The position numbers and the translations under genes were made by a program. A model generated the notes under the pieces. It searched no databases and was not told where the DNA came from. It was given only the letters and a program-made list of their open reading frames with translations. Shown in pieces: positions 1 to 11,838 of a stretch of DNA of 11,838 nt. How positions within the stretch are numbered: the first letter of the stretch is position 1; every line of letters starts with the position of its first letter. Source of the stretch: a virus (taxonomy: Duplodnaviria; Heunggongvirae; Uroviricota; Caudoviricetes); IMG/VR virus record IMGVR_UViG_3300000059_000035, positions 1 through 11,838 of that record. One strand, given 5' to 3'.

Positions 1-1
1 C

Positions 2-3000
2 CTGAAAGTCGTCGATGGCATTCTGGTATCTCCGGACGATTACGAAGGTAAGGACGGGGTATTTACCGGCTATCAGCTACGAACCGTAAACGGCAAAAAC
101 GGGAATGAGTTCAAGAAGGCCAACAATAAAGACGGCTTCCTGAACCAGTTAGAAAACTACCTGAACGGTGTTAAACCGCGTGGGCAGAACGCTAACGAGT
201 ACCTGGATAAAATTGCTCAACTGGAAGTTAGTTTTAACGACTGGTTACGCACCCACCCGCAGGCGGATCAGATAGCCCGCGAGTATAACGACGCATTCAA
301 TGGCTTCATTCCGTTCACGCACTCTAACGCACCGCTTGGCCTGGAAGGGATTAGTGGAAAGCGCATTCCTCTGACTTATCAGAATGAAGAAGTTCGGCGC
401 TTGTCAGAAGATGGGCGCGGCATCATGGGATTTGGTACCGGGCTGGGTAAAACCACGACCGCGCTTGCGCTTGAGGCGTATAACTTCGAAACAGGTCGCA
501 CTAAACGCACGTGTATTGTTGTTCCGAAGGCGGTTTATCAGAACTGGTATCACGAGGCACAGAGCTTCTACAGTGCTGATGCCTTCGCAAATATGATGTT
601 TATCGGTCTGGATGAAGTTCGTGATGAAGACGGCAATATTCTGACCGCGCCGGTGCTTGATGAAAATGGCGAACCCCGCCTCGACAGTAACGGGCAGCCT
701 CTTACCAGAAATGTTGTGAAAGAGTCCGCCAGCGCCGTTATCGTTCAGCGCATGAACATGATCCCGTCGTCAAATTGGCGAACGGTCATCATGACAAAAG
801 AACAATTCGCGTCTATCCCGCTACGAGAAAAAACCATCGAGGAGAACTCACAGCAAGCTGTCTTTAATGCTGTGGAAATGGGGCGTCTTGACCTGGCGTC
901 TGGTAAACACCGTGATGCGCAGAAGAAGAACAAGATTAAGGATCAGGCCGCGGATACCGGTACAACGAAGAAGCAGAATATCCCGTACTTTGAGGATATG
1001 AACTTCGATAGCGTGATTGCCGACGAGGGGCATAACTACCGCAACTCCTTTAATGCCGGGCGTGAAGCGGGACAACTGGCATATTTGCCTAACCCGGCAG
1101 TATCCAAGATGGCCCGCGACATGGCTGTAAAAGCTGCGTACATGATGAAACGCAACAACGGGCGTGGTGTAGTCATGCTGACGGCAACACCGCTGGTGAA
1201 CAGTCCGATTGATGCCTTCAACATGCTGTCTACTGTCATTCCGCAGGAAGAGTGGATGCGCATGGGCATCATTACGCCTGATGATTTCGTTCGTGTGTTT
1301 GGTAAAACAGCCACAGTTCAGGTCCAGAAAATTTCCGGGGAAGTGGAAGAGAAGCAGGGGCTGGTTGGCTTCCAGAACCTTGATGGCCTGCGTGGTATTT
1401 TCCATCGCTGGACTACTCTGAAGACTGCTGCGGACGTCGGGGCGACGGTTAAAATCCCTGATATTGTCGAGAATACCTTGCAGATCCCGATGACAGGGGA
1501 GCAGGAGGCTGCTTATGAAGAGCTTCGTAAGCGTGCACAGGAGTTAAGTAGTAAAGATGCGCTGACGGTTGATGAAAACGGGCATATCACAAACGAAAAA
1601 CCGGATGATTTCATCTTCTCCATCATCCGCGACATGGATAAGGTTGCTATAGATCCGGATCTGTATGCCAGTGCGATTACATTCCAGTTCCCCGTTGAGC
1701 TTGCAGACAAGGTAAAAGCTATTGCTGATGCCCTGCCAAAAGTAGCTGGCGGTAAAGTGGCAGATGATGCAGACGAGGCCGAAGAAGACGGCGCTGGTGG
1801 GCTGGTTAGTACGCGCACCAGTAAGGTAGTGAAGACCACCTTTAGTGAACATCCGGCGCATGTTGAAATACGTGCCAGCATTGAACTGGAAGCTGAAATA
1901 CTGAAGGCCATTGCTGCCGCCGGGATTGATCTGCAGCAGGTATCACACCCCATCCCGCCGAAGTATGCCGCGCTGATCGAAAACCTTCGTGAAGGTCTGA
2001 AGAACGGTAAACAAATTGTCTTCATTGATGAAAAAGCCCAGCACCAGAAGCTGCGCCGTATTATCGCCAGTGCACTGCAAATGCCGGAGCAGGAGATAGG
2101 CATTATCAATGCGACGACCGTTAGCCAGGCTGGCGGCATCAAGCTGAAGAAGGTGAATAAGCCGACTGAACCTACTCCGAATAAAAACGGTGAATACAAA
2201 GAAGGGGCATGGGAAACCTACTACAGCAAACTTGCCCAATATGAGGATTATCTCTCAGCTAAAAATGATGCTGGCCTTGAGGGTATGGAAGGCATTGCCG
2301 CCGACTATAACGAAGGGCGCACGCGCATCATTATCTGTAACAAGAAGGCTGAAGTAGGTATTAACCTGCATATCGGGACAACCGATATCCACCACCTGAC
2401 ACTACCCTGGACACCAGCCAGTATCGACCAACGAAATGGGCGCGGTGCGCGCGTAGGTTCACCGCAAGAGAAGGTCAATGTTCACTACTATTGTGGCAAA
2501 GGCACATTCGACGACTTCCGTCTGGATACGCTGAAACGTAAGAAAGACTGGATCAAGATGGTGATGACCTCCGATATGTCAGAGATCGCCAATGGTGATG
2601 CGGATGATGCTGATGAACGCGCCATTATGCTGGCGGCAAACCCGGAAGAACGCCGCGCAATCATGGCTCGCCAGGCGCAAGAGCGTGAAGAACGTCTGAA
2701 ACTGAAAGCACAGCGCGAGGCCAACAATGCTCTCGATATCTACCTAAAAGCGGCAAACGCCGCCGGAAAAGATATCGGCATGATGGAGACAGAACTGAAA
2801 AGCGCGATGGAGCAGATAGAGTATTACCAGCGCAATCTTGACGACCTGATAAAAGCGGGCACGAACAGGAATGGGCAAAAATACGCGCTTGAGCAGTTGA
2901 GTAGCTACAGAAAACGTGCGCGGGTGCTGCGGTTTGCGATCACCAGGGCAAAAGACGCGGATACCATAATGAAACGCTCTCGTGGTGATGTGGAGCGCGC

Positions 3001-4735
3001 TATTAAGTCTGGTGTGCTGGATATCAGTATCGATGTTATTCAGAACCCACAGGAATATATGCGCACTGACAAGAATATCCTGTTGCATAAAGGTAGTTAT
3101 TACCGTGCAGTCATTGATGATCGCGAAACAACAGCGATTGTCCGGGTGGAAAAAATTGACGGTGAAAAAGCACAGTACATCTGCCGTATCGCCTGGCTGG
3201 ATAGAGCAAGTCGTTACGCTCGATCACCGGGGTCAATCGTTACATTGCCGTTTGACTCTGTGATTGAAGCGGTAACTTTTGAAGAGGGGGTAGCTGAATC
3301 GCGCGCAACGGCTGCGCGTGGTGTTCAGTGCCACCAGCTATCAACAATACTTACTCGCGATCAGTTCTATGATGCTATTCGCAATGGGGTAATGAATGTT
3401 ATTGCTGGTAAACCTGGTAATGCATGGGGCGGTGGGTCAGCTATTAAATACTGGGCATATCGCACAGATGATGGTCAGATCGCGCTGTCATCGGCCTATG
3501 ATGGCGTGATAGGCCAAAAAATCGGGCGAGCATCGGATATAGCACCTGAACGATGGATATATCCAGATGGCAACGATGAGGCGCTGAAGCGTGAAGTGGC
3601 AAAAATACAAGCCAGTGATAACCCGCTGAATATCGTGGACGGAGAGGGATTCCTCCAGGCATTGTATGGGTATGATTACATCCAGGGAATGCAGGCATGG
3701 GGCGCACAGGCAACGATGGATGATGTTGCCAAGGAGTTCGAAAACTGGATGGCTGGGCGTGGTCTGTCAGGTCGTTCGCTTAATAAAGTCACTTCTGAAG
3801 ATATTCTTAGCCTGTTCCGCAAACCGTCCGGAGAAGGTCTGGAATCATTCTGGAGGACCGTGCTGGCATACCGTTTATTCCAGGGCAGGATGAAAGCCTT
3901 TAGCAATATCGATGATATTGAACGGATGTTTAATCAGGTCAAGATAGCGAAAATTAAGACGAAGATCGAAAAAACACGTTCTGCGCTGGTGGCCTGGCGC
4001 GATGCATTGTTTGAGCAATATAAATCACTCAGTGATGCAGATGGATGGGCGGCACTGGAACAGTTGGCGAATAATGGGGTAGATGGAGCGAAACTCGCCA
4101 TTGTCCAGGCTGATAACCCCCTGGAATCACCGGCAGCACAGTGGATTAAGGTGGGGGCTGTCATCAATGCATTTGATGAAAAACACATTAGTAAGGACGA
4201 TTTTGCTGATGCTGTTTCTGTTAATCGCCTGGTAGAAATGGCTACCCGCCGCGCCCGTGAGTTGAAAGACGGTGACTATGTGAATGAGTTGCCGGATGCG
4301 CTCAAATCAGCAACGTGGCAAGACTATGTATCGCTGAAAAACGGCGGGGCCACCGAATCAGAGATCGCGGAAAGGCTTGAACAGGCTGAAAGCAAAAGAG
4401 AAGAGCAGGCGGCAGTGGCAGAAGCCAGAGCTGATGAAGCGGCGAATGATGACTATATCATTGTGGTTAATGATAAGCCGATTCGCGCTAAGGCGCGTGT
4501 TCGCGGGCGCTGGTGGAGCGTCAGCGAGGACGTTGGCGCGGTTTATCTCATTGCCGACCAACCAGGTTCCTCGACAATACGGAACGCCAAAGACGCGATT
4601 AAGAAGATTGGCGGGCGTTTCTGGAATTTTGAAGTGAATCCGGTCGCGGATGTGGACTTTGACCGTCCGGCGTGGATGGTATCTACGCGTTACTCGGTAG
4701 ATGAACTGCGTAAAATAATCGCCGATGCGGCTTAA
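2..4735 (+). CDS. Giant multidomain protein, 5'-truncated by the window edge (1578 codons visible); SF2 DEGH-box helicase core followed by a ~750-aa C-terminal region of unknown function
   Basis: Frame 2 is open from position 2 through the TTG at 401 where the ORF track begins (I walked every codon; no stop), ending at TAA 4733-4735. Walker A GFGTGLGKTT at 428-460, DEGH box at 1022-1033, LTATP (motif III-like) at 1178-1192, motif VI QRNGRGARVG at 2429-2458. Acidic tract DDADEAEEDG and a charged coiled-coil-like segment (ERRAIMARQAQEREERLKLK). No convincing start or RBS in-window, so the N-terminus lies upstream. Confidence 0.85.
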   Translation: MKVVDGILVSPDDYEGKDGVFTGYQLRTVNGKNGNEFKKANNKDGFLNQLENYLNGVKPRGQNANEYLDKIAQLEVSFNDWLRTHPQADQIAREYNDAFNGFIPFTHSNAPLGLEGISGKRIPLTYQNEEVRRLSEDGRGIMGFGTGLGKTTTALALEAYNFETGRTKRTCIVVPKAVYQNWYHEAQSFYSADAFANMMFIGLDEVRDEDGNILTAPVLDENGEPRLDSNGQPLTRNVVKESASAVIVQRMNMIPSSNWRTVIMTKEQFASIPLREKTIEENSQQAVFNAVEMGRLDLASGKHRDAQKKNKIKDQAADTGTTKKQNIPYFEDMNFDSVIADEGHNYRNSFNAGREAGQLAYLPNPAVSKMARDMAVKAAYMMKRNNGRGVVMLTATPLVNSPIDAFNMLSTVIPQEEWMRMGIITPDDFVRVFGKTATVQVQKISGEVEEKQGLVGFQNLDGLRGIFHRWTTLKTAADVGATVKIPDIVENTLQIPMTGEQEAAYEELRKRAQELSSKDALTVDENGHITNEKPDDFIFSIIRDMDKVAIDPDLYASAITFQFPVELADKVKAIADALPKVAGGKVADDADEAEEDGAGGLVSTRTSKVVKTTFSEHPAHVEIRASIELEAEILKAIAAAGIDLQQVSHPIPPKYAALIENLREGLKNGKQIVFIDEKAQHQKLRRIIASALQMPEQEIGIINATTVSQAGGIKLKKVNKPTEPTPNKNGEYKEGAWETYYSKLAQYEDYLSAKNDAGLEGMEGIAADYNEGRTRIIICNKKAEVGINLHIGTTDIHHLTLPWTPASIDQRNGRGARVGSPQEKVNVHYYCGKGTFDDFRLDTLKRKKDWIKMVMTSDMSEIANGDADDADERAIMLAANPEERRAIMARQAQEREERLKLKAQREANNALDIYLKAANAAGKDIGMMETELKSAMEQIEYYQRNLDDLIKAGTNRNGQKYALEQLSSYRKRARVLRFAITRAKDADTIMKRSRGDVERAIKSGVLDISIDVIQNPQEYMRTDKNILLHKGSYYRAVIDDRETTAIVRVEKIDGEKAQYICRIAWLDRASRYARSPGSIVTLPFDSVIEAVTFEEGVAESRATAARGVQCHQLSTILTRDQFYDAIRNGVMNVIAGKPGNAWGGGSAIKYWAYRTDDGQIALSSAYDGVIGQKIGRASDIAPERWIYPDGNDEALKREVAKIQASDNPLNIVDGEGFLQALYGYDYIQGMQAWGAQATMDDVAKEFENWMAGRGLSGRSLNKVTSEDILSLFRKPSGEGLESFWRTVLAYRLFQGRMKAFSNIDDIERMFNQVKIAKIKTKIEKTRSALVAWRDALFEQYKSLSDADGWAALEQLANNGVDGAKLAIVQADNPLESPAAQWIKVGAVINAFDEKHISKDDFADAVSVNRLVEMATRRARELKDGDYVNELPDALKSATWQDYVSLKNGGATESEIAERLEQAESKREEQAAVAEARADEAANDDYIIVVNDKPIRAKARVRGRWWSVSEDVGAVYLIADQPGSSTIRNAKDAIKKIGGRFWNFEVNPVADVDFDRPAWMVSTRYSVDELRKIIADAA

Positions 4736-4746
4736 CAGATAAGGAG

Positions 4747-4764
4747 CGGCCCCAGCCGGGGCCG
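4747..4764 (+). other. GC-rich hairpin (7-bp stem CGGCCCC/GGGGCCG, 4-nt loop) between an AAGGAG Shine-Dalgarno (4741-4746) and the ATG at 4772
   Basis: Perfect inverted repeat read directly; no U-tract follows, so it is not a canonical intrinsic terminator. Confidence 0.6.
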
Positions 4765-4771
4765 GATTTGA

Positions 4772-5206
4772 ATGACGACATTAATTGACACTGTAAAACC
4801 GACGGAATCCTACCTTGAGGATATTTTGCCGCAGGCGCTCAATGGCAGGAGTGAAGAGGCGTTTCTGGATGCATATCTGGATGGTATGGTGGAAAGGCTG
4901 AAACGAGATCCACAGCTTTATCACCTTTATGGCCCGTGGTGGCCTGCGCTTAAAACGTTATTGCTGGAGCGCGGCGACATATCATTTGGACAAGTTGTAG
5001 ATAGTGATGTGGCAGAGATCTACAAAATGAGTCGCCCGGCGCTTACGGTTTTAGCCGGGCATCTGTATTCAAGCGATCGCCTGGAAAATGACGCGGTATA
5101 CAATCCCGTTCATGCTCTGGAAGTCGCGCCTTATGCTGATGATACAGAGCCATATGTGTACACAAGTTACGACGAGTCGATAGAGAAATATCGAATCATG
5201 GGGTAG
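4772..5206 (+). CDS. Hypothetical acidic protein, 144 aa
   Basis: ATG ORF 36 nt downstream of the giant gene stop; about 25 D/E versus 12 K/R by my count; stop TAG 5204-5206 lies 2 nt before the next ATG. Confidence 0.6.
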   Translation: MTTLIDTVKPTESYLEDILPQALNGRSEEAFLDAYLDGMVERLKRDPQLYHLYGPWWPALKTLLLERGDISFGQVVDSDVAEIYKMSRPALTVLAGHLYSSDRLENDAVYNPVHALEVAPYADDTEPYVYTSYDESIEKYRIMG

Positions 5207-5208
5207 CT

Positions 5209-5469
5209 ATGCGAAAGAATCGTAGGTTTACGATCGACGACTTAAAAGCGTACTCACAAGGGAAGGGATACGCCCTTGAATACCACCGTTATAAGCGGGT
5301 ATTTACCCTGCGGCATATAGAAAACCCTTCGAAATGGGGATGGATTTATTTTCCGCACACTGACGATAAGCTGGTGGGCCTTGTTGATGATTTATCCTAT
5401 GAAGGATGGATGATCGCTATCGACAAGGCGGTTACAGAAATTAACGAACCGGATAAAATAAACCATTAA
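5209..5469 (+). CDS. Hypothetical protein, 86 aa
   Basis: ATG at 5209 is 2 nt after the upstream stop (TAGCTATG), suggesting translational coupling; same strand and context. No recognisable motif. Confidence 0.5.
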   Translation: MRKNRRFTIDDLKAYSQGKGYALEYHRYKRVFTLRHIENPSKWGWIYFPHTDDKLVGLVDDLSYEGWMIAIDKAVTEINEPDKINH

Positions 5470-5473
5470 AAAT

Positions 5474-5513
5474 AACAAGTTGGGTAAATGACATACAATT
5501 TACCCGGCTTGTT
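5474..5513 (+). other. Long hairpin just after the 86-aa gene (16-bp stem with two G-U pairs, 8-nt loop); possible terminator or RNA stabiliser lacking a U-tract
   Basis: AACAAGTTGGGTAAAT (5474-5489) pairs with ATTTACCCGGCTTGTT (5498-5513); core GGGTAAAT/ATTTACCC is a perfect 8-bp inverted repeat. Confidence 0.5.
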
Positions 5514-5592
5514 GACCCGCATCACCATTTACTCTAAAAACAAGTCCGACCTGTTGCATCCGCCTATCTCTTTAGTAGTATTTCCCCCGGTT

Positions 5593-5620
5593 TTGATAAA
5601 ACTAACGCTCTTGTTATTAT
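5593..5620 (+). promoter_or_regulatory. Candidate sigma70-type promoter (-35 TTGATA, 16-bp spacer, -10 TATTAT)
   Basis: TTGATA at 5593-5598 and TATTAT at 5615-5620, about 35 nt upstream of the VRR-NUC ORF start. Confidence 0.4.
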
Positions 5621-5644
5621 CGTGATCATGATTTCAGGAAGTTT

Positions 5645-5654
5645 GTGTTAGAAA
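5645..5654 (+). promoter_or_regulatory. Copy of the recurring GTGTTAGAAA motif, ending 1 nt before the TTG start at 5656
   Basis: Exact 10-mer shared with 7945-7954 and 8095-8104. Confidence 0.4.
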
Positions 5655-5655
5655 T

Positions 5656-6102
5656 TTGATTCGAAGACGCAGGCATCATAGTGCGTATTCTGAAATATCC
5701 CCGCACGCTGCTGCACTAAGAGAGTTAGAAAGAAATCCTGACTTACTAAAAAGGAATTACGAACATTACGAACAGGTTCGCGTTCTGGATTGGCTGTATC
5801 GCAACATGCGATACGTGTATGAGCACACACACTCAACACCGAACGGCGGCCTGAGAGGCAAAAGGACAGCCATTAAGATGGTGGCAGAAGGTCAGAAGAA
5901 GGGCTATCCGGACCTTTCTATTGACCTTGCTCGTGGTGGGTATCACGGAATGCGCATTGAGATGAAGCACGGGAGAAACCGTCTGACTCCCGAACAGCTC
6001 GTCTGGATGACCCGCCTCACGGAAGCAGGCTATTACTGCTTTGAGGCGCGCAGTGCCGATGAAGCCATAAAAGCTATCACGGAATATGTAAATCTTGATT
6101 AA
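5656..6102 (+). CDS. VRR-NUC domain nuclease (PD-(D/E)xK superfamily), 148 aa if the TTG start is used
   Basis: Conserved VRR-NUC-like segments read in the translation: HSTPNGG, GYPDLSI, RIEMKHG (E-x-K), TPEQLVWMTRLTEAGYYCF. Stop TAA 6100-6102. Start is uncertain: the only in-frame start codon before the conserved N-terminal region is TTG at 5656, with weak SD. Confidence 0.7.
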   Translation: MIRRRRHHSAYSEISPHAAALRELERNPDLLKRNYEHYEQVRVLDWLYRNMRYVYEHTHSTPNGGLRGKRTAIKMVAEGQKKGYPDLSIDLARGGYHGMRIEMKHGRNRLTPEQLVWMTRLTEAGYYCFEARSADEAIKAITEYVNLD

Positions 6103-6116
6103 ACGGAGAAATCGTT

Positions 6117-6317
6117 TTGCGTTTACTTAACGTGGCTGAACTTATCCCTGCCGGTGCTAACGTTGTTGCTCGTCGCTGCTCATGGCCTCATTCTTTCTGT
6201 ATAGAGCTTAAAAAGATGGATGATGGGGCATTAGAAGCCCGAAACATAGTTACCGGCGACAAGGTATGCATTACCCCGGAAAGCGCGAAAGCCAATGATT
6301 GGGAGTTTGTTCATTGA
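6117..6317 (+). CDS. Hypothetical small protein, 66 aa (TTG start)
   Basis: GGAG at 6104-6107 lies 9 nt upstream of TTG 6117; stop TGA 6315-6317. No motif recognised; short, so uncertain. Confidence 0.35.
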   Translation: MRLLNVAELIPAGANVVARRCSWPHSFCIELKKMDDGALEARNIVTGDKVCITPESAKANDWEFVH

Positions 6318-6625
6318 GCAGAAAACACCACGTAAATCTGACGTTTGCTGATGACGCCGGAAGAACCAGAAGCATAACCATGAAAGTTGCTTCCAGGAAA
6401 GTAACCGCTCCACTTATACGAGAGGCCGTAAGTGAACTTGAGATGAGTGAGAATGCAGCTCTGTTATCGGTAAGCTGGCTGGGGAAAATGACGGATCAGG
6501 AATACTCGGATGGTATACCCCACGGTGAGCGGCAGATAGTAAAGCGCGCGCTTAGAATTTCAGAGGTAGTTGTCGTACTGATAGCTTTGATTTATATGGC
6601 ATACATGCTACTTCAACACGTCTAA
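6314..6625 (+). CDS. Hypothetical small protein with a C-terminal hydrophobic (probable transmembrane) segment; start uncertain (TTG 6314 or ATG 6380)
   Basis: TTG 6314-6316 overlaps the upstream TGA (TTGA) with GGGAG at 6301-6305; alternative ATG at 6380. C-terminus ISEVVVVLIALIYMAYMLLQHV is strongly hydrophobic. Stop TAA 6623-6625. Confidence 0.4.
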   Translation: MSRKHHVNLTFADDAGRTRSITMKVASRKVTAPLIREAVSELEMSENAALLSVSWLGKMTDQEYSDGIPHGERQIVKRALRISEVVVVLIALIYMAYMLLQHV

Positions 6626-6633
6626 ACGGTCAT

Positions 6634-6660
6634 AAACCCGCCAGTTGGCGGGTTTTTTGT
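6634..6660 (+). terminator. Rho-independent terminator
   Basis: Stem CCCGCC (6637-6642) / GGCGGG (6647-6652), loop AGTT, followed by TTTTTT (6653-6658). Confidence 0.8.
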
Positions 6661-6676
6661 TGCCTGAGTCTTTTTA

Positions 6677-6713
6677 TTGAAATTGCATACTAATAAAATA
6701 TGTTAGAAAACTA
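6677..6713 (+). promoter_or_regulatory. Candidate promoter for the 402-aa gene (-35 TTGAAA, 16-bp spacer, -10 TATGTT) overlapping a TGTTAGAAAACTA motif copy
   Basis: TTGAAA 6677-6682, TATGTT 6699-6704; motif GTTAGAAAACTA at 6702-6713; the ATG at 6735 has an AGGGAA-type SD. Confidence 0.5.
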
Positions 6714-6734
6714 ATTTCAAGAAAGGGAACAAAC

Positions 6735-7943
6735 ATGAGTCAGCAAGTAGAATCATCAAGCCTGGAGATCATCTCAACCGCAATTGAAACGCTGCGGACA
6801 CAAATCGCGCTTATACAGAAACGAAATCCGGGCGATGACCTGTCAAAGCGACTGCATGAGAGCGTCATTGCCACTACAGATAACCTGGTGGCGGAAATCA
6901 ACCAGCTCCTTGATGATGGGGCAGTTGATTACAATAAGCTGGTGGATCAGTTTGAGGAATATCAGCAAGCCGTTAATGATGGCTTGATCCGTTTTTCTCA
7001 AGTCACTGGTGTATCAGCGACAGTTGAAAGCCTGGGGGATGCTGTTAATCAATTTGCCGCGAATATGCGTAATGAGATCGGCAATCTGGAGGCGCGTCTT
7101 GAGCAGGCAAATACACTGCGCAAATCTGCTGAAGTCGATTTGAGTCGTTACAAAAAAGACTATCCGCCAAGCCTGACAAAACGACTGGATGTTGCGGAGA
7201 AAGATAACCGCACGCTGAAAAGAGAGCGTCGGGAACTAAAAGAGCGTTTAACCAAGCTAAATCAGCAATGCGTTGAGTATCAAGGCGAACTCGTCACGCT
7301 GCGTAAAAAGTTAGCAGCGGCGCAGAGCATTATTGAAACATTGAAACGAGAGTGCTCAGAGCTTGGTCATGATCTGAATCGCGCCTGTGGCATGGGGCAA
7401 AGGCCAGAGACATTCCCGCTAATGTATGACGGAAGAGAAGCTATTGCCTATATCCATGAGTTTCCGCATGGTCTGGTCGCGGAGACTGGGCAACGTGGCG
7501 AAGCGTTGCTGACGGCAAATTACCATCAGCAAATCAGAACCAGCCGCCTGCTGACGATGGATGTGATCCCGTCAGTATGGGGAACGCCGCTTTACTACCG
7601 AATTCCTGGCTTCGAAACTGACTGGAATACCGACATAGACGAATGTCTGGCAGATAAAATTATGGCGTACCTTGAAACGGATTTTCCACGCTTGCATCGC
7701 CGGATTATGGACTCTAAGGATGCACCGATCGACGAATTGAAAATGCGTCCAGAGACGTTGGAGGCAATCAAGCAGACTGAGTTTGATACAGTGTTCAGTG
7801 TGGCCTGCATTCCAAGCAGCTTTCATGAAAGCATTCCGTTCATGCAGGGCGATCGACGTCAGGAAATAATTGATGCTTGCCGGGTATGGGCGAACGAGTG
7901 GGATAAGAAGAACGGTGGAGTTGAAAATCTTTACGGGAAATAA
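6735..7943 (+). CDS. Hypothetical protein, 402 aa: N-terminal ~220 aa predicted coiled coil, C-terminal ~180 aa globular domain of unknown function
   Basis: ATG with SD; long ORF; heptad-like charged segments (for example RLDVAEKDNRTLKRERRELKERLTKLNQQCVEYQGELVTLRKKLAAAQ); flanked by a terminator upstream and a palindrome downstream. No catalytic motif recognised. Confidence 0.75.
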   Translation: MSQQVESSSLEIISTAIETLRTQIALIQKRNPGDDLSKRLHESVIATTDNLVAEINQLLDDGAVDYNKLVDQFEEYQQAVNDGLIRFSQVTGVSATVESLGDAVNQFAANMRNEIGNLEARLEQANTLRKSAEVDLSRYKKDYPPSLTKRLDVAEKDNRTLKRERRELKERLTKLNQQCVEYQGELVTLRKKLAAAQSIIETLKRECSELGHDLNRACGMGQRPETFPLMYDGREAIAYIHEFPHGLVAETGQRGEALLTANYHQQIRTSRLLTMDVIPSVWGTPLYYRIPGFETDWNTDIDECLADKIMAYLETDFPRLHRRIMDSKDAPIDELKMRPETLEAIKQTEFDTVFSVACIPSSFHESIPFMQGDRRQEIIDACRVWANEWDKKNGGVENLYGK

Positions 7944-7944
7944 T

Positions 7945-7976
7945 GTGTTAGAAAACTAAAATTATCTTTCTAACAT
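7945..7976 (+). promoter_or_regulatory. Palindromic operator-like site: GTGTTAGAAA - 12 bp - TTTCTAACAT
   Basis: Arms 7945-7954 and 7967-7976 are reverse complements at 9 of 10 positions; it sits 2 nt after the stop codon of the 402-aa gene. Confidence 0.5.
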
Positions 7977-8011
7977 GTTGATTATGGGATTAACTTAACA
8001 TAGAATTTTTC

Positions 8012-8081
8012 GTGCTGGTGGGGAGCTTCCCATGTCGCTTGCGGGTTTGATAGTCACTTCATTGTCTTCCCCCACCAGCAC
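8012..8081. repeat. Long-stem inverted repeat (about 13-bp stem with one bulge, 43-nt interior), tRNA-sized (70 nt)
   Basis: GTGCTGGTGGGGA (8012-8024) pairs with TCCCCCACCAGCAC (8068-8081). Confidence 0.45.
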
Positions 8082-8094
8082 CAAACAAACTTAA

Positions 8095-8104
8095 GTGTTA
8101 GAAA
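8095..8104 (+). promoter_or_regulatory. Copy of the GTGTTAGAAA motif
   Basis: Exact 10-mer; AT-rich flanks. Confidence 0.4.
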
Positions 8105-8246
8105 GTAAATTTTAAGGTAAGGGAAAGCTCCGGCACCGTGCAAATACATGCCCGGCAGGTTTAGTGCGTAAAGTGGTTTCAGCGAGAGCATTTTACGGAG
8201 TAAACGACAGTGACTTGAGCCACGGAAGGTCTTTTTAAGGTGTTCA

Positions 8247-8274
8247 TTGATGATGATCTGGCAGTGAGTATGTT
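8247..8274 (+). promoter_or_regulatory. Candidate promoter (-35 TTGATG, 16-bp spacer, -10 TATGTT) upstream of the small ORF at 8338
   Basis: Same -10 hexamer (TATGTT) and spacer length as the 6677-6704 candidate. Confidence 0.35.
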
Positions 8275-8337
8275 AAGTGGGCCAGGCTGCATCGGGTCAT
8301 CATCAGTGCACATCCTCAACGTTAAGGAGGCGCAGAG

Positions 8338-8529
8338 TTGGGTTTTCCTCTTATTTTGCTGACTCTGAGTCTCCTTAACGTTGCGGTAATGCACCTATGC
8401 GGATGTGGCCTTGCATTGTGTTTTGAAAGAATGGGGGTAAGGCCGGGGATATCCCCAGGGGGAGGCACCCCCGCTGCAACGAACAGCCATAGACGGCAGT
8501 CGAGTGATGAAAACGTGAAAAGACTTTAA
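8338..8529 (+). CDS. Small protein (63 aa) with a hydrophobic N-terminal half; candidate membrane peptide
   Basis: Strong SD AAGGAGG at 8324-8330, 7 nt before TTG 8338; N-terminus GFPLILLTLSLLNVAVMHLCGCGLALCF is hydrophobic, C-terminus polar. Non-ATG start and short length keep confidence low. Confidence 0.35.
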   Translation: MGFPLILLTLSLLNVAVMHLCGCGLALCFERMGVRPGISPGGGTPAATNSHRRQSSDENVKRL

Positions 8530-8606
8530 ACCTCGTTACGGCTGGCGTGGCAAACGCGACAACCGGGATAGGACGGTGACGGGCGGAGAGAGAGCCGCTT
8601 CAAGAT

Positions 8607-8673
8607 AAAAGCCGACTATGGATTCCTTTCTGCGGGCCTTTGAAAGTGAATCTTGCTCAGGCAGTCGGCTTTT
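8607..8673. repeat. Long-stem inverted repeat (perfect 11-bp stem, 45-nt interior), tRNA-sized (67 nt)
   Basis: AAAAGCCGACT (8607-8617) pairs with AGTCGGCTTTT (8663-8673). Confidence 0.45.
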
Positions 8674-8803
8674 ATGTTGATACGTAGCGATAACCGCGAC
8701 AGGCGCGGCGGTAAGTATGGCGGGGTTATTCCTTCCCCGTTGAGGACACCGAGTTGCCAGGTTGACCATACGCCTAAGTGGCAATACCGCGAGTGGGATA
8801 TTT

Positions 8804-8828
8804 GCCCACCTTCGGGTGGGTGTTTTTT
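8804..8828 (+). terminator. Rho-independent terminator
   Basis: Stem CCCACC (8805-8810) / GGTGGG (8815-8820), loop TTCG, followed by TGTTTTTT. Confidence 0.8.
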
Positions 8829-9012
8829 CAGTGTTTTCGTCATGGTTAGCGACTTTGCGGCGGTTTAGAACCCGACCATTAAAGTAAATGCAAACGATGA
8901 TCTGATGATGGTAGCGGCCTAAGAAGCCTGACGCCACGGGGTATGAGTCGTCCCCCGTCAAAAAATCGACCGCAGAGTGTCCCCGTCTGTGTATTAGGGA
9001 ACGGGGAGGCAT

Positions 9013-9089
9013 AACAGGCAAGGGCGCTGGTGTGATTAACCAGATGAATGAGAAGGGGCAGGTCTTTCTGGTCAGCGCCCTTACCTGTT
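9013..9089. repeat. Long-stem inverted repeat (17-bp stem with 1 mismatch, 43-nt interior), tRNA-sized (77 nt)
   Basis: AACAGGCAAGGGCGCTG (9013-9029) pairs with CAGCGCCCTTACCTGTT (9073-9089). Confidence 0.45.
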
Positions 9090-9288
9090 GCGTCCTTCCC
9101 GCGTAACAGCCATTGGTTAATGGCTTTCTGGATAATGTCTTGTAACGGGTATATCCCGTCATGCTGAAGGCGCTAATCACGCTGGAAGCCAGGGTTATGC
9201 ATCCCCTGTTACCGAATTGCAGCCAGGGCGCGGTGCGCCGAAAAGCATACGGAGGTGGAAGCCCTCGCCGGAGACGTACCCGGCAAGT

Positions 9289-9365
9289 GATGGTGTAGCT
9301 CAGTAGGATAGAGCAGCAGCCTTCTAAGCTGTCGGTCGGTGGTTCGAATCCACCCACCATCGCCA
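9289..9365 (+). tRNA. tRNA-Arg (anticodon TCT)
   Basis: Cloverleaf read by hand: acceptor GATGGTG/CACCATC, D-arm GCTC-AGTAGGATA-GAGC, anticodon stem GCAGC/GCTGT with loop CTTCTAA, T-arm GGTGG-TTCGAAT-CCACC, discriminator G, encoded CCA. D-arm and anticodon loop resemble E. coli argU as I recall it. Confidence 0.9.
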
Positions 9366-9370
9366 ATTTA

Positions 9371-9457
9371 GGGGAGTTAGTCCGTAGGGGTAGCGGGGTA
9401 GACTGTAAATCTACTGTCATTGCGACTCGGATGGTTCGACTCCATCACTCCCCACCA
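9371..9457 (+). tRNA. tRNA-Tyr (anticodon GTA), type II with long variable arm
   Basis: Acceptor GGGGAGT/ACTCCCC, anticodon stem GTAGA/TCTAC with loop CTGTAAA, long variable arm TGTCATTGCGACTCG (similar to E. coli tyrT as I recall it), T-arm GATGG-TTCGACT-CCATC, encoded CCA. D-arm pairing is imperfect as drawn by hand. Confidence 0.8.
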
Positions 9458-9461
9458 AATT

Positions 9462-9537
9462 GCCGGTTTAGCTCAGTTGGTAGAGCAGTCGCTTTGTAAG
9501 CGAATGGCCAGCGGTTCAAGTCCGTTAACCGGCACCA
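9462..9537 (+). tRNA. tRNA-Thr (anticodon TGT)
   Basis: Acceptor GCCGGTT/AACCGGC, D-arm GCTC-AGTTGGTA-GAGC, anticodon stem GTCGC/GCGAA with loop TTTGTAA, T-arm AGCGG-TTCAAGT-CCGTT, discriminator A, encoded CCA. Confidence 0.9.
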
Positions 9538-9545
9538 ACACAACA

Positions 9546-9619
9546 GGTAAGGGTATTTTGCGACGTCGGAGATCGCCGTGCTTGGCAGAGGGTTCGAATC
9601 CCTACGAAGTACCCTTACC
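9546..9619 (+). other. tRNA-like remnant or tRNA-sized hairpin (74 nt) directly after the tRNA array; not a canonical tRNA
   Basis: Perfect 10-bp terminal stem GGTAAGGGTA (9546-9555) / TACCCTTACC (9610-9619) enclosing a T-arm-like hairpin AGGG-TTCGAAT-CCCT (9589-9603). Nine extra nt lie between the T-stem and the 3' acceptor strand, and no D-arm or anticodon arm can be drawn. Confidence 0.35.
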
Positions 9620-9767
9620 GTTGTGGTGAATGCGCAGGCTGATGCGCGAAAGACATTGCAGCTATTGCGGAAAAGAGCTGTTCGGCGGGGCAATTAAACG
9701 CCCGTGAGAGTCTGAAATAACCGCAAGCCGGAGATCAGCACCGGTCACCACAACAGCCACTGCTTTG

Positions 9768-9813
9768 GCGGTACCAGTTTGTACACTTGCTTCCGGCTGG
9801 TACCGCTCTTTTT
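9768..9813 (+). terminator. Rho-independent terminator (10-bp stem, 19-nt loop, U-tract)
   Basis: GCGGTACCAG (9768-9777) / CTGGTACCGC (9797-9806) followed by TCTTTTT (9807-9813). Confidence 0.7.
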
Positions 9814-9814
9814 A

Positions 9815-9901
9815 CAAAACAGAGAAGAGCATCACCGGACGACGGGCTCATAACCCAATCCATCCGGGCGGCNGNCACCGCAGGTGTTCTTCTCTGTTTT
9901 G
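9815..9901. repeat. Long-stem inverted repeat (16-bp stem with 1 mismatch, ~55-nt interior) in the leader upstream of the yfdP-like gene
   Basis: CAAAACAGAGAAGAGC (9815-9830) pairs with GTTCTTCTCTGTTTTG (9886-9901); interior contains two N bases (9873, 9875). Confidence 0.4.
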
Positions 9902-9950
9902 TGGAGAAACCAACCGACCTTGCAGGGTCGATATGATNAGGAGCAGCAAA

Positions 9951-10313
9951 ATGGCTAGCGAACGCAGTACTGATGTGCAGGCATTTATCGGGGAGCTGGA
10001 CGGCGGCGTATTTGAAACCAAAATCGGCGCAGTTCTCAGTGAAGTCGCTTCCGGTGTGATGAACACGAAAACCAAAGGTAAGGTCTCACTCAACCTGGAA
10101 ATCGAACCATTTGATGAGAACCGTGTGAAAATCAAACACAAACTCTCATATGTTCGCCCGACTAACCGCGGGAAAATTTCCGAAGAAGACACCACCGAAA
10201 CGCCGATGTATGTCAATCGCGGTGGTCGCCTGACTATTCTGCAGGAAGACCAGGGACAATTACTGACTCTTGCCGGTGAACCTGACGGAAAACTCCGCGC
10301 AGCAGGTCATTAA
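9951..10313 (+). CDS. yfdP: YfdP-like phage protein, 120 aa
   Basis: ATG 9951 preceded by AGGAG (9939-9943, next to an N at 9938); stop TAA 10311-10313. The 120-aa length and its position directly upstream of yfdQ/yfdR-like genes match the CPS-53 arrangement as I recall it. The longer ORF in the track (from 9765) crosses a terminator and N bases, so I reject the extension. Confidence 0.7.
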   Translation: MASERSTDVQAFIGELDGGVFETKIGAVLSEVASGVMNTKTKGKVSLNLEIEPFDENRVKIKHKLSYVRPTNRGKISEEDTTETPMYVNRGGRLTILQEDQGQLLTLAGEPDGKLRAAGH

Positions 10314-10378
10314 TATCGTTCTTAATTAACTGATTATTTATCTCATCACTGAATATCTTTATATAGTGAGGACTTATT

Positions 10379-11203
10379 ATGTCTCAGAACTTAGACGCAA
10401 CCGCAATTAATCAAATCCATGCCCTTATTTCTGCTCAGGGTGTTAATGAAATTATCAGTAAGATTGGTGCCGATGCTGTGGCATTGCCTGAGAATTTCCG
10501 CATTCATGATCTGGAAAAATTTAATTTAAATCGCTTCCGTTTCCGTGGTGCGCTTTCCACTGCCAGCATCGATGACTTTACCCGTTATTCTAAAGATCTT
10601 GCAGATGAAGGCACCCGCTGCTTTATCGATGCCGATAATATGCGTGCCGTCAGTGTGCTTAACCTGGGTACTATTGATGAACCAGGTCACGCAGATAACA
10701 CCGCCACTCTCAAACTGAAAAAGACAGCACCGTTCTCTGCNCTGTTGTCTGTTAANGGCGAGCGTAACTCCCAGAANTCACTGGCAGAATGGATTGAAGA
10801 CTGGGCCGACTACCTTGTGGGCTTTGATGCTAATGGTGACGCCATTCAGGCAACCAAAGCGGCGGCGGCTATCCGTAAAATCACAATTGAAGCGAACCAG
10901 ACCGCTGATTTTGAAGATAATGACTTCAGCGGCAAACGCTCCCTGATGGAGTCTGTCGAAGCGAAGACCAAAGACATTATGCCAGTGGCATTTGAATTTA
11001 AATGCATTCCGTTTGAAGGTCTGAAAGAACGTCCGTTTAAATTACGCCTCAGCATTATCACTGGCGATCGTCCGGTACTGGTTCTGCGCATTATTCAGCT
11101 GGAGGCGGTGCAGGAAGAAATGGCTAACGAATTTCGTGATCTGCTTGTTGAGAAATTCAAAGACAGCAAAGTAGAAACCTTTATTGGTACTTTCACCGCC
11201 TGA
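10379..11203 (+). CDS. yfdQ: YfdQ-like protein (DUF2303 family), 274 aa
   Basis: ATG with SD GAGGA at 10368-10372; 274 aa as in E. coli YfdQ; three codons contain N (10741, 10756, 10777). Stop TGA 11201-11203. Confidence 0.75.
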
Positions 11204-11215
11204 TTTCATTACTGC

Positions 11216-11237
11216 AAATGCCCCTGCGGGGGCATTT
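11216..11237 (+). terminator. Terminator-like hairpin (9-bp stem AAATGCCCC/GGGGCATTT, loop TGCG) with weak U-tract
   Basis: Perfect inverted repeat immediately after the yfdQ stop; followed by ATGG rather than a clean T-run, so it may be an attenuator or partial terminator. Confidence 0.5.
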
Positions 11238-11329
11238 ATGGAAACGTAATTACTCAATAATCGCCGGATGGTGAGGGCTTCCTTTTACCAGAATTCAGCG
11301 CGGTGCAGCGCATATACGTGGAGAACAAA

Positions 11330-11838
11330 ATGTCATTTATTAAAACTTTTTCCGGGAAGCATTTTTATTATGACAGGATAAATAAAGACGACATCGATAT
11401 TAACGATATCGCGGTTTCCCTTTCAAATATCTGTCGCTTTGCCGGTCATCTTTCGCACTTCTACAGCGTCGCCCAACATGCGGTTCTTTGCAGCCAGCTG
11501 GTGCCGCAGGAATTTGCTTTTGAAGCGTTAATGCATGATGCAACAGAAGCGTATTGCCAGGACATTCCCGCACCACTGAAACGCCTTCTTCCTGACTATA
11601 AACGGATGGAAGAAAAAATAGACGCCGTAATCCGTGAGAAATACGGGTTACCTCCTGTTATGAGCACGCCAGTGAAATATGCCGATCTCATCATGCTGGC
11701 AACCGAACGCCGCGATCTCGGGCTTGATGATGGCTCTTTCTGGCCTGTACTGGAAGGCATCCCGGCAACAGAGATGTTCAACGTGATTCCACTGGCACCG
11801 GGTCATGCCTACGGGATGTTTATGGAACGTTTTAACGA
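11330..11838 (+). CDS. yfdR: YfdR-like HD-domain phosphohydrolase (5'-deoxynucleotidase family), 3'-truncated by the window end
   Basis: ATG 11330 with GGAG 8 nt upstream; HD-domain signature residues visible (FAGHLSHF ... ALMHDATEAY); ORF still open at position 11838. Confidence 0.8.
   Translation, partial: MSFIKTFSGKHFYYDRINKDDIDINDIAVSLSNICRFAGHLSHFYSVAQHAVLCSQLVPQEFAFEALMHDATEAYCQDIPAPLKRLLPDYKRMEEKIDAVIREKYGLPPVMSTPVKYADLIMLATERRDLGLDDGSFWPVLEGIPATEMFNVIPLAPGHAYGMFMERFN

Follow-up and report, generated by a model that had tools for sequence, protein, structure and literature searches.

The DarB protein of phage P1 is a head protein of ~250 kDa, present at ~40-45 copies per virion (PMC9024508, PMC12810830, PMC12707154, PMC5512222). 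Its N-terminal 30 aa suffice for targeting to the capsid, and its incorporation is helped by DdrB and by Ulx, which aids localisation to the capsid (PMC9024508). The protein is believed to enter the cell along with the DNA (PMC9024508, PMC12810830, PMC12707154). Protection from the type I enzymes EcoK and EcoB needs P1 DarB in cis, as described through the phenotype of darB mutants (PMC12810830, PMC12707154), and the gene is dispensable for plaque formation (PMC10695390). The Dar system has also been reported to act on several type I families and on BREX (PMC12707154). As to mechanism, Iyer et al. (2017) proposed that a methylase-SNF2 dyad moves along the injected DNA, methylating it (PMC5512222), and physical occlusion has also been considered in reviews (PMC12707154). 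Plasmid-based assays of DarB are confounded by the restriction alleviation that Chi or EcoKI sites induce (PMC11109961). DarB is the named archetype of the methylase-SNF2 dyad among polyvalent proteins, an LPD36-methyltransferase-SWI2/SNF2 module carried by phages and plasmids and delivered with DNA (PMC5512222). Many polyvalent proteins carry extra effector domains such as peptidases and ARTs, whereas none is recognisable in the gene described here. A literature search returned no experiments on DarB proteins of the phage D6 type, and no recent mechanistic work on DarB.

A D6-type DarB orthologue and its neighbours

The window, that is, the whole stretch of 11,838 nucleotides that was analysed, opens within a very long reading frame, followed by genes in the same arrangement as in D6.

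2..4735, plus strand: 3' part of the darB orthologue, an open frame that takes in codons 702-2278 and the stop of a gene with 2278 codons
4772..5206, plus strand: ulx orthologue (phrog_1629 'Ulx-like anti-restriction', E 2.3e-59; 46% identical to P1 Ulx, E 1e-44)
5656-6102: VRR-NUC nuclease gene, pmgM-like (Pfam)

In the translation of the window, frame 2 is uninterrupted from base 2 to the stop codon at 4733-4735 and holds 1577 sense codons; the 5' 2103 nt of darB lie outside the window. The sequence-only reading had described a giant frame of 1578 codons running off the 5' edge, which corresponds to these 1577 codons plus stop (bases 2-4735). The listing of open reading frames, which omits those running off the window edge, gives darB as 401..4735 from an internal TTG. 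Compared with D6, dN/dS is 0.086 over the whole ORF, 0.069 in the helicase and 0.126 in the C-terminal part. By the overall and C-terminal values, the ORF is a real gene, whose C-terminal tail is under purifying selection.

We compared the locus with sequenced relatives at the DNA and protein levels. Over bases 2-9755, DNA identity is 99.1% with the E. coli plasmid pEC361_3 (NZ_AP027414) and 92% with phage D6 (MF356679). The encoded part of DarB matches residues 702-2278 of a 2278-aa protein of pEC361_3 (WP_286338123.1, 'SNF2-related protein') at 1572 of 1577 positions (99.7%), and is 97.9% identical to D6 gp15 (ASR76325.1), for which the depositors' annotation reads "defense against restriction; similar to P1 gene darB". 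The window gene differs from those of pEC361_3 and D6 by no more than a few substitutions. The gene is therefore already known, both through RefSeq/GenBank entries at 98-99.7% identity and as darB-like in the D6 annotation. Among phage protein families, the ORF matches positions 704-2278 of phrog_1685 (2278 positions) with 2300 bits, whereas the match to phrog_10089 ('DarB-like', 4647 aa) is limited to part of the helicase.

The resemblance extends to P1. The full-length pEC361_3 relative is collinear with P1 DarB (YP_006479.1, 2255 aa), 43% of 2000 aligned residues being identical (E = 0). Both have the same order of parts: an N-terminal region, a predicted gamma-class N6A methyltransferase, a SNF2 ATPase and a long tail. 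They also have in common ATPase motifs I, II, III and VI and the methyltransferase motifs EPSAGTG and NVPF. In bins of 100 residues, identity to P1 DarB is 29-55% in the N-terminal 700 residues, 38-68% in the helicase region and 19-26% in the last ~680 residues. The tail alone matches P1 DarB with E 3e-10 over 377 columns, and the last ~120-130 residues do so with E 0.006 and 27% identity. The 30-aa capsid-targeting stretch of P1 DarB is poorly conserved in the D6 type.

The gene order adds to this picture. The ulx gene starts 36 nt past the darB stop, and this order and orientation are common to the window and P1. Beyond ulx, the window has pmgM- (VRR-NUC), pmgR- and pmgS-like morphogenesis genes. 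The same flanking genes (ulx, orf13, pmgM-, pmgR- and pmgS-like) are found in pEC361_3 and D6, whereas a lambdoid yfdP/Q/R module, absent from both records, occupies the right end of the window from ~9620. The wider neighbourhoods differ between types: in P1, lxc-mod-res follows ulx and prt-pro lies upstream, whereas in the D6 type pmg genes follow ulx and a peptidoglycan hydrolase lies upstream. The D6 genome is annotated with homologues of hdf, darA, ddrA and ddrB, which makes the Dar set of this lineage complete.

The full-length relatives have long N-termini, not short ones. Their N-terminal 701 residues, a region outside the window, contain motif I EPSAGTG and motif IV NVPF as in P1. This same region has near-threshold Pfam matches to N6_Mtase (19.9 bits in pEC361_3, with a cut-off of 20.4, and 21.0 bits in D6) and to Eco57I. 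In a full-length relative it also matches a type I restriction-modification methyltransferase subunit in the PDB (E 9.4e-5). The upstream N6-adenine methyltransferase that had been predicted from the window is thus supported by the motifs, the near-threshold Pfam scores and the PDB match in near-identical relatives.

Taken as a whole, the homology indicates that the window ORF very probably represents the C-terminal 1577 residues of a DarB orthologue from a D6-type (P1-like) E. coli phage-plasmid, with predicted P1-like loading into the virion and protection in cis against type I restriction; no feature of the window speaks against this. The DarB class, at first no more than a guess, is supported by the collinearity with P1 DarB, the identity to the darB-annotated gp15 of D6 and the Ulx homologue next to it. 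The sequence analysis itself establishes homology, domain content, synteny and purifying selection; virion packaging and anti-restriction activity, demonstrated for P1 DarB alone (PMC9024508, PMC12810830), would be carried over by analogy.

The SNF2 motor

The window gene encodes a SWI2/SNF2 ATPase whose motifs I, II, III and VI are all intact, as expected of a P1-type DarB. Residue numbers below count from the start of the window frame.

374..2569, plus strand: SWI2/SNF2-type two-lobe ATPase/translocase core, window residues ~125-856 (Pfam SNF2-rel_dom, ResIII and Helicase_C; AF2 model and Foldseek)
428..460, plus strand: Walker A / motif I GFGTGLGKTTT, conserved in the family consensus
1022..1033, plus strand: motif II DEGH, conserved in the family consensus
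1178..1192, plus strand: motif III LTATP, window residues 393-397, located in the translation and in the family consensus
1763..1792, plus strand: acidic loop DDADEAEEDG within a low-confidence insertion between the ATPase lobes (AF2 pLDDT <50)
2429..2458, plus strand: motif VI QRNGRGARVG, window residues 810-819, invariant in the family alignment

Pfam searches of the darB ORF found SNF2-rel_dom (E 1.9e-13), ResIII and Helicase_C, all above their gathering scores, and no other domain. In the family alignment, all ATPase motifs are kept in relatives that are 42-69% identical. We modelled window residues 100-870 with AF2 from 11 sequences (pLDDT 70, pTM 0.63). The best PDB neighbours of this model in Foldseek are CSB, Chd1, Mot1, Ino80, ISWI, ZorD and Rad54 (E 1e-12 to 7e-15, prob 1.0). 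With translocases of this kind (CSB, Chd1, Mot1, Ino80, Rad54 and Zorya ZorD) the darB motor shares the two-lobe ATPase fold and the SNF2-specific helical inserts, whereas sequence identity is 11-14% and the accessory domains differ.

The translation confirms the exact positions previously read for Walker A, DEGH and motif VI, and modifies the domain limits drawn from them. The helicase motifs had been placed within the first ~690 residues; the core instead reaches ~856, with motif VI at 810-819, which leaves an uncharacterised tail of about 720 aa. Similarly, an insertion of ~470 aa with an acidic tract had been described ahead of motif VI. Its length (466 aa from DEGH to motif VI) and the tract at 1763-1792 are as described, but most of the segment is normal SNF2 architecture, comprising motif III, helical protrusions and motif IV near residue 671. 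According to the model, what goes beyond other SWI2/SNF2 translocases amounts to two loops of low confidence, an acidic one at residues ~583-607 and another at ~707-735; the former corresponds to model residues 484-508, with pLDDT <50.

A lineage-restricted C-terminal tail

The last 711 residues were modelled separately with AF2, using only 16 sequences (model m8d0070e841f5; mean pLDDT 84.9, pTM 0.46). The tail is confidently predicted to fold into several domains, with a mutual arrangement that the pTM leaves uncertain.

2642..3007, plus strand: tail part 1, three long antiparallel helices, window residues 881-1002 (model helices 15-55, 59-86 and 90-136)
3056..3499, plus strand: tail part 2, a small beta-barrel (residues 1019-1091) and an alpha/beta unit (residues 1095-1166), AF2 model
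3578..4441, plus strand: tail part 3, an all-helical domain, residues 1193-1480, AF2 model
4454..4732, plus strand: tail part 4, a terminal beta-rich domain and last helix, residues 1485-1577, AF2 model (27% identity to the last 120 aa of P1 DarB)

Sequence conservation varies along the tail: the helices of part 1 are 19-37% identical across the family, and the second half of the helical domain (model residues 477-614), with 5-26% identity to relatives, is the most divergent stretch of the protein. The sequence-only reading had found no motif in the last ~750 aa, and the tail as now delimited indeed has no Pfam or PDB sequence match. Searched separately from the helicase core, which matches the Pfam SNF2 families, four sub-fragments of the tail and of the inter-lobe insert gave only noise in Pfam at E<=10. 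A phmmer search of the ORF against PDB sequences returned marginal SNF2 matches (E >= 0.04) and none for the tail. Structure prediction, also suggested at the outset, gave a SNF2 fold for the motor and a folded tail that lacks informative structural relatives: Foldseek against the PDB found none at E<=0.001, only Tudor/KOW/LSm barrels of ~60 residues.

Homologues of the tail are few. A word-index search returned only 13 close fragments, and when 1.84 billion representative proteins were searched exhaustively with HMMER, there were 29 matches, all of them fragments or proteins of DarB size (2192-2302 aa). By the number and nature of these matches, the tail is not a widespread domain but is confined to DarB proteins of the P1/D6 type. 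On the Logan contig L005, a DarB tail with 29% identity to that of the window sits next to an Ulx with 65% identity; the tail diverges faster than its neighbours. To the known gene, the present analysis adds only that the tail is restricted to this lineage and diverges rapidly, together with a prediction of how its domains are laid out.

Alternative readings and proposed function

The divergence of the tail invites a reading in which a DarB homologue has been retargeted by its C-terminal third, either to host systems other than those countered by P1 DarB (other type I families, BREX or others) or mainly to head assembly. The low identity to P1 of the C-terminal ~680 aa (19-26%, versus 38-68% in the helicase region), the tail-to-Ulx difference in the Logan contig and the reported range of the Dar system, with several type I families and BREX (PMC12707154), are in keeping with it. 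We nevertheless consider it distinctly unlikely, as the collinearity with P1 DarB is complete, the ATPase and methyltransferase motifs are all retained, and low identity in the tail may simply mean weak constraint on a scaffold region.

Two further readings concern the motor. SNF2 helicases also occur in host defence (DISARM DrmD, Zorya ZorD, BREX BrxHII and Dpd DpdE), and a plasmid could carry one to exclude other phages. PADLOC/NCBIfam models of DrmD, ZorD, DpdE and BrxHII do match the window protein partially, with E 1e-7 to 1e-11, and ZorD is among the structural neighbours of the motor. Yet the matches score 25-45 bits, against curated cut-offs of 500-1100 (DrmD 44.5 bits versus 610, DpdE 31.6 bits versus 500), and cover only generic lobe-2 or Walker A stretches. 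Since they are partial and so far under the cut-offs, and no partner genes of those systems are found in the window or in D6, we rejected membership in all four. The neighbours of darB are instead ulx and head-morphogenesis genes, leaving a defence role extremely improbable. Just as little probability falls to a replicative or recombination helicase/primase, or to a purely structural protein, for which one could invoke the helicase-like ATPase and the nearby VRR-NUC nuclease gene. The fold and Pfam family of the motor are those of a SWI2/SNF2 dsDNA translocase, not of DnaB, a primase or SF1; the full-length relative has a long N-terminus with a predicted methyltransferase; and P1 darB is non-essential for plaques (PMC10695390). 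The SNF2 fold and the long N-terminus, together with the collinearity with P1 DarB, refute this assignment.

We therefore return to a DarB orthologue acting as in P1. By homology, the 2278-aa protein would be made late and would be the last of the Dar components to enter the procapsid, loaded through an N-terminal targeting sequence (outside the window) and with the assistance of Hdf, DarA, DdrA, DdrB and Ulx. It would then be ejected with the DNA and act in cis against type I restriction of the EcoK/EcoB type. The half encoded in the window would contribute the tail and a SNF2-type dsDNA translocase motor with all ATPase motifs intact. Riding the entering DNA, DarB may use its predicted N-terminal methyltransferase, of the gamma class, to methylate adenines, or else it may displace or block translocating type I enzymes. 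This translocating methylase or blocker is, we infer, the most likely model for the window orthologue. The lineage-specific C-terminal ~710 aa would be an interaction module, contacting either other proteins or DNA.

With a C-terminal third only ~20% identical to that of P1, the target range of the D6-type protein may differ. More tentatively, the ~710-aa C-terminus might be a lineage-restricted, fast-diverging folded module, made of a three-helix coil, a Tudor/BAH-like barrel, and helical and terminal beta domains. It could either pick the restriction complexes that DarB engages or tether DarB to the DarA/Hdf layer of the capsid, and its evolution, driven by an arms race, would be uncoupled from that of the conserved methyltransferase-motor core; we hold this specific proposal to be unlikely. 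DarB is among the largest proteins delivered by phages, and the value of the present gene lies in this context. With a conserved motor and tails ~20% identical, the P1- and D6-type proteins constitute a natural pair for domain swaps, for which the tail model supplies the domain boundaries.

The right-end junction and the yfdP/Q/R module

The similarity of the window to D6 (a phage of the D6/P1 type) and its relatives stops at positions 9637–9755, and the remainder of the sequence is occupied by a module of different affinity:

9620–11838: yfdP/yfdQ(DUF2303)/yfdR-like module, matched at 97–98% identity by lambdoid prophages, Stx prophages and chromosomal prophages of Escherichia coli

No record among phage or PLSDB plasmid records covers both sides of the junction at ~9620–9755, the top coverage being 82%. 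Either the junction is a mosaic one, new in a D6-like phage-plasmid, or it comes from a chimeric assembly.

tRNA genes and the region preceding them

Ahead of the module lies a tRNA cluster, preceded by a long stretch devoid of annotated genes:

8536–9420, minus strand: ORF of 294 aa, without family support, overlapping the tRNA genes
9289–9537, plus strand: genes for three tRNAs (Arg-tct, Tyr-gta, Thr-tgt)

At the matching place, D6 encodes tRNAs for Asn, Thr and Ser, which lie on the other strand. A putative tRNA 3′ fragment lies at ~9550–9615, after the cluster and directly ahead of the junction. The ~1.3 kb from the pmgS-like morphogenesis gene to the tRNAs (7944–9290) has no annotated CDS in either D6 or the closely related E. 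coli plasmid pEC361_3. Its GC content is raised (0.51–0.54), and it contains seven imperfect inverted repeats, one of them with 38-nt arms (8301–8338/8362–8399); an Rfam search of this region gave no match.

Variation in ORF calls

Downstream of the ulx orthologue, the call of one start codon varies by record:

5656–6102, plus strand: VRR-NUC/PmgM-like nuclease ORF, 148 aa from a TTG start

In pEC361_3 the corresponding product has 74 aa, and that of D6 has 164 aa. A distant DarB relative in L005, a Logan contig (SRR11351753), was called as two adjoining ORFs:

L005 4768–12095: a first ORF of 1074 aa bearing the SNF2 domain and a second of 1211 aa (P0013), separated by 8 nt

These are followed by a Ulx homologue 65% identical to Ulx of the window. 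The gene may truly be split in two, or the two-ORF form may stem from a frameshift or from an error in sequencing.

Chi and restriction sites

We found eight Chi sites (GCTGGTGG) in the window, six of them on the plus strand:

Plus strand: 1793, 3985, 4509, 5370, 6938, 8014
Minus strand: 3331, 8072

The number expected from base frequencies is ~0.2 per strand in 11.8 kb. EcoKI sites are absent from the window, where chance predicts just ~1–2, and there is one EcoBI site. P1 and darB have been reported to be Chi-enriched (PMC11109961), and the eight Chi sites observed here fit this enrichment.
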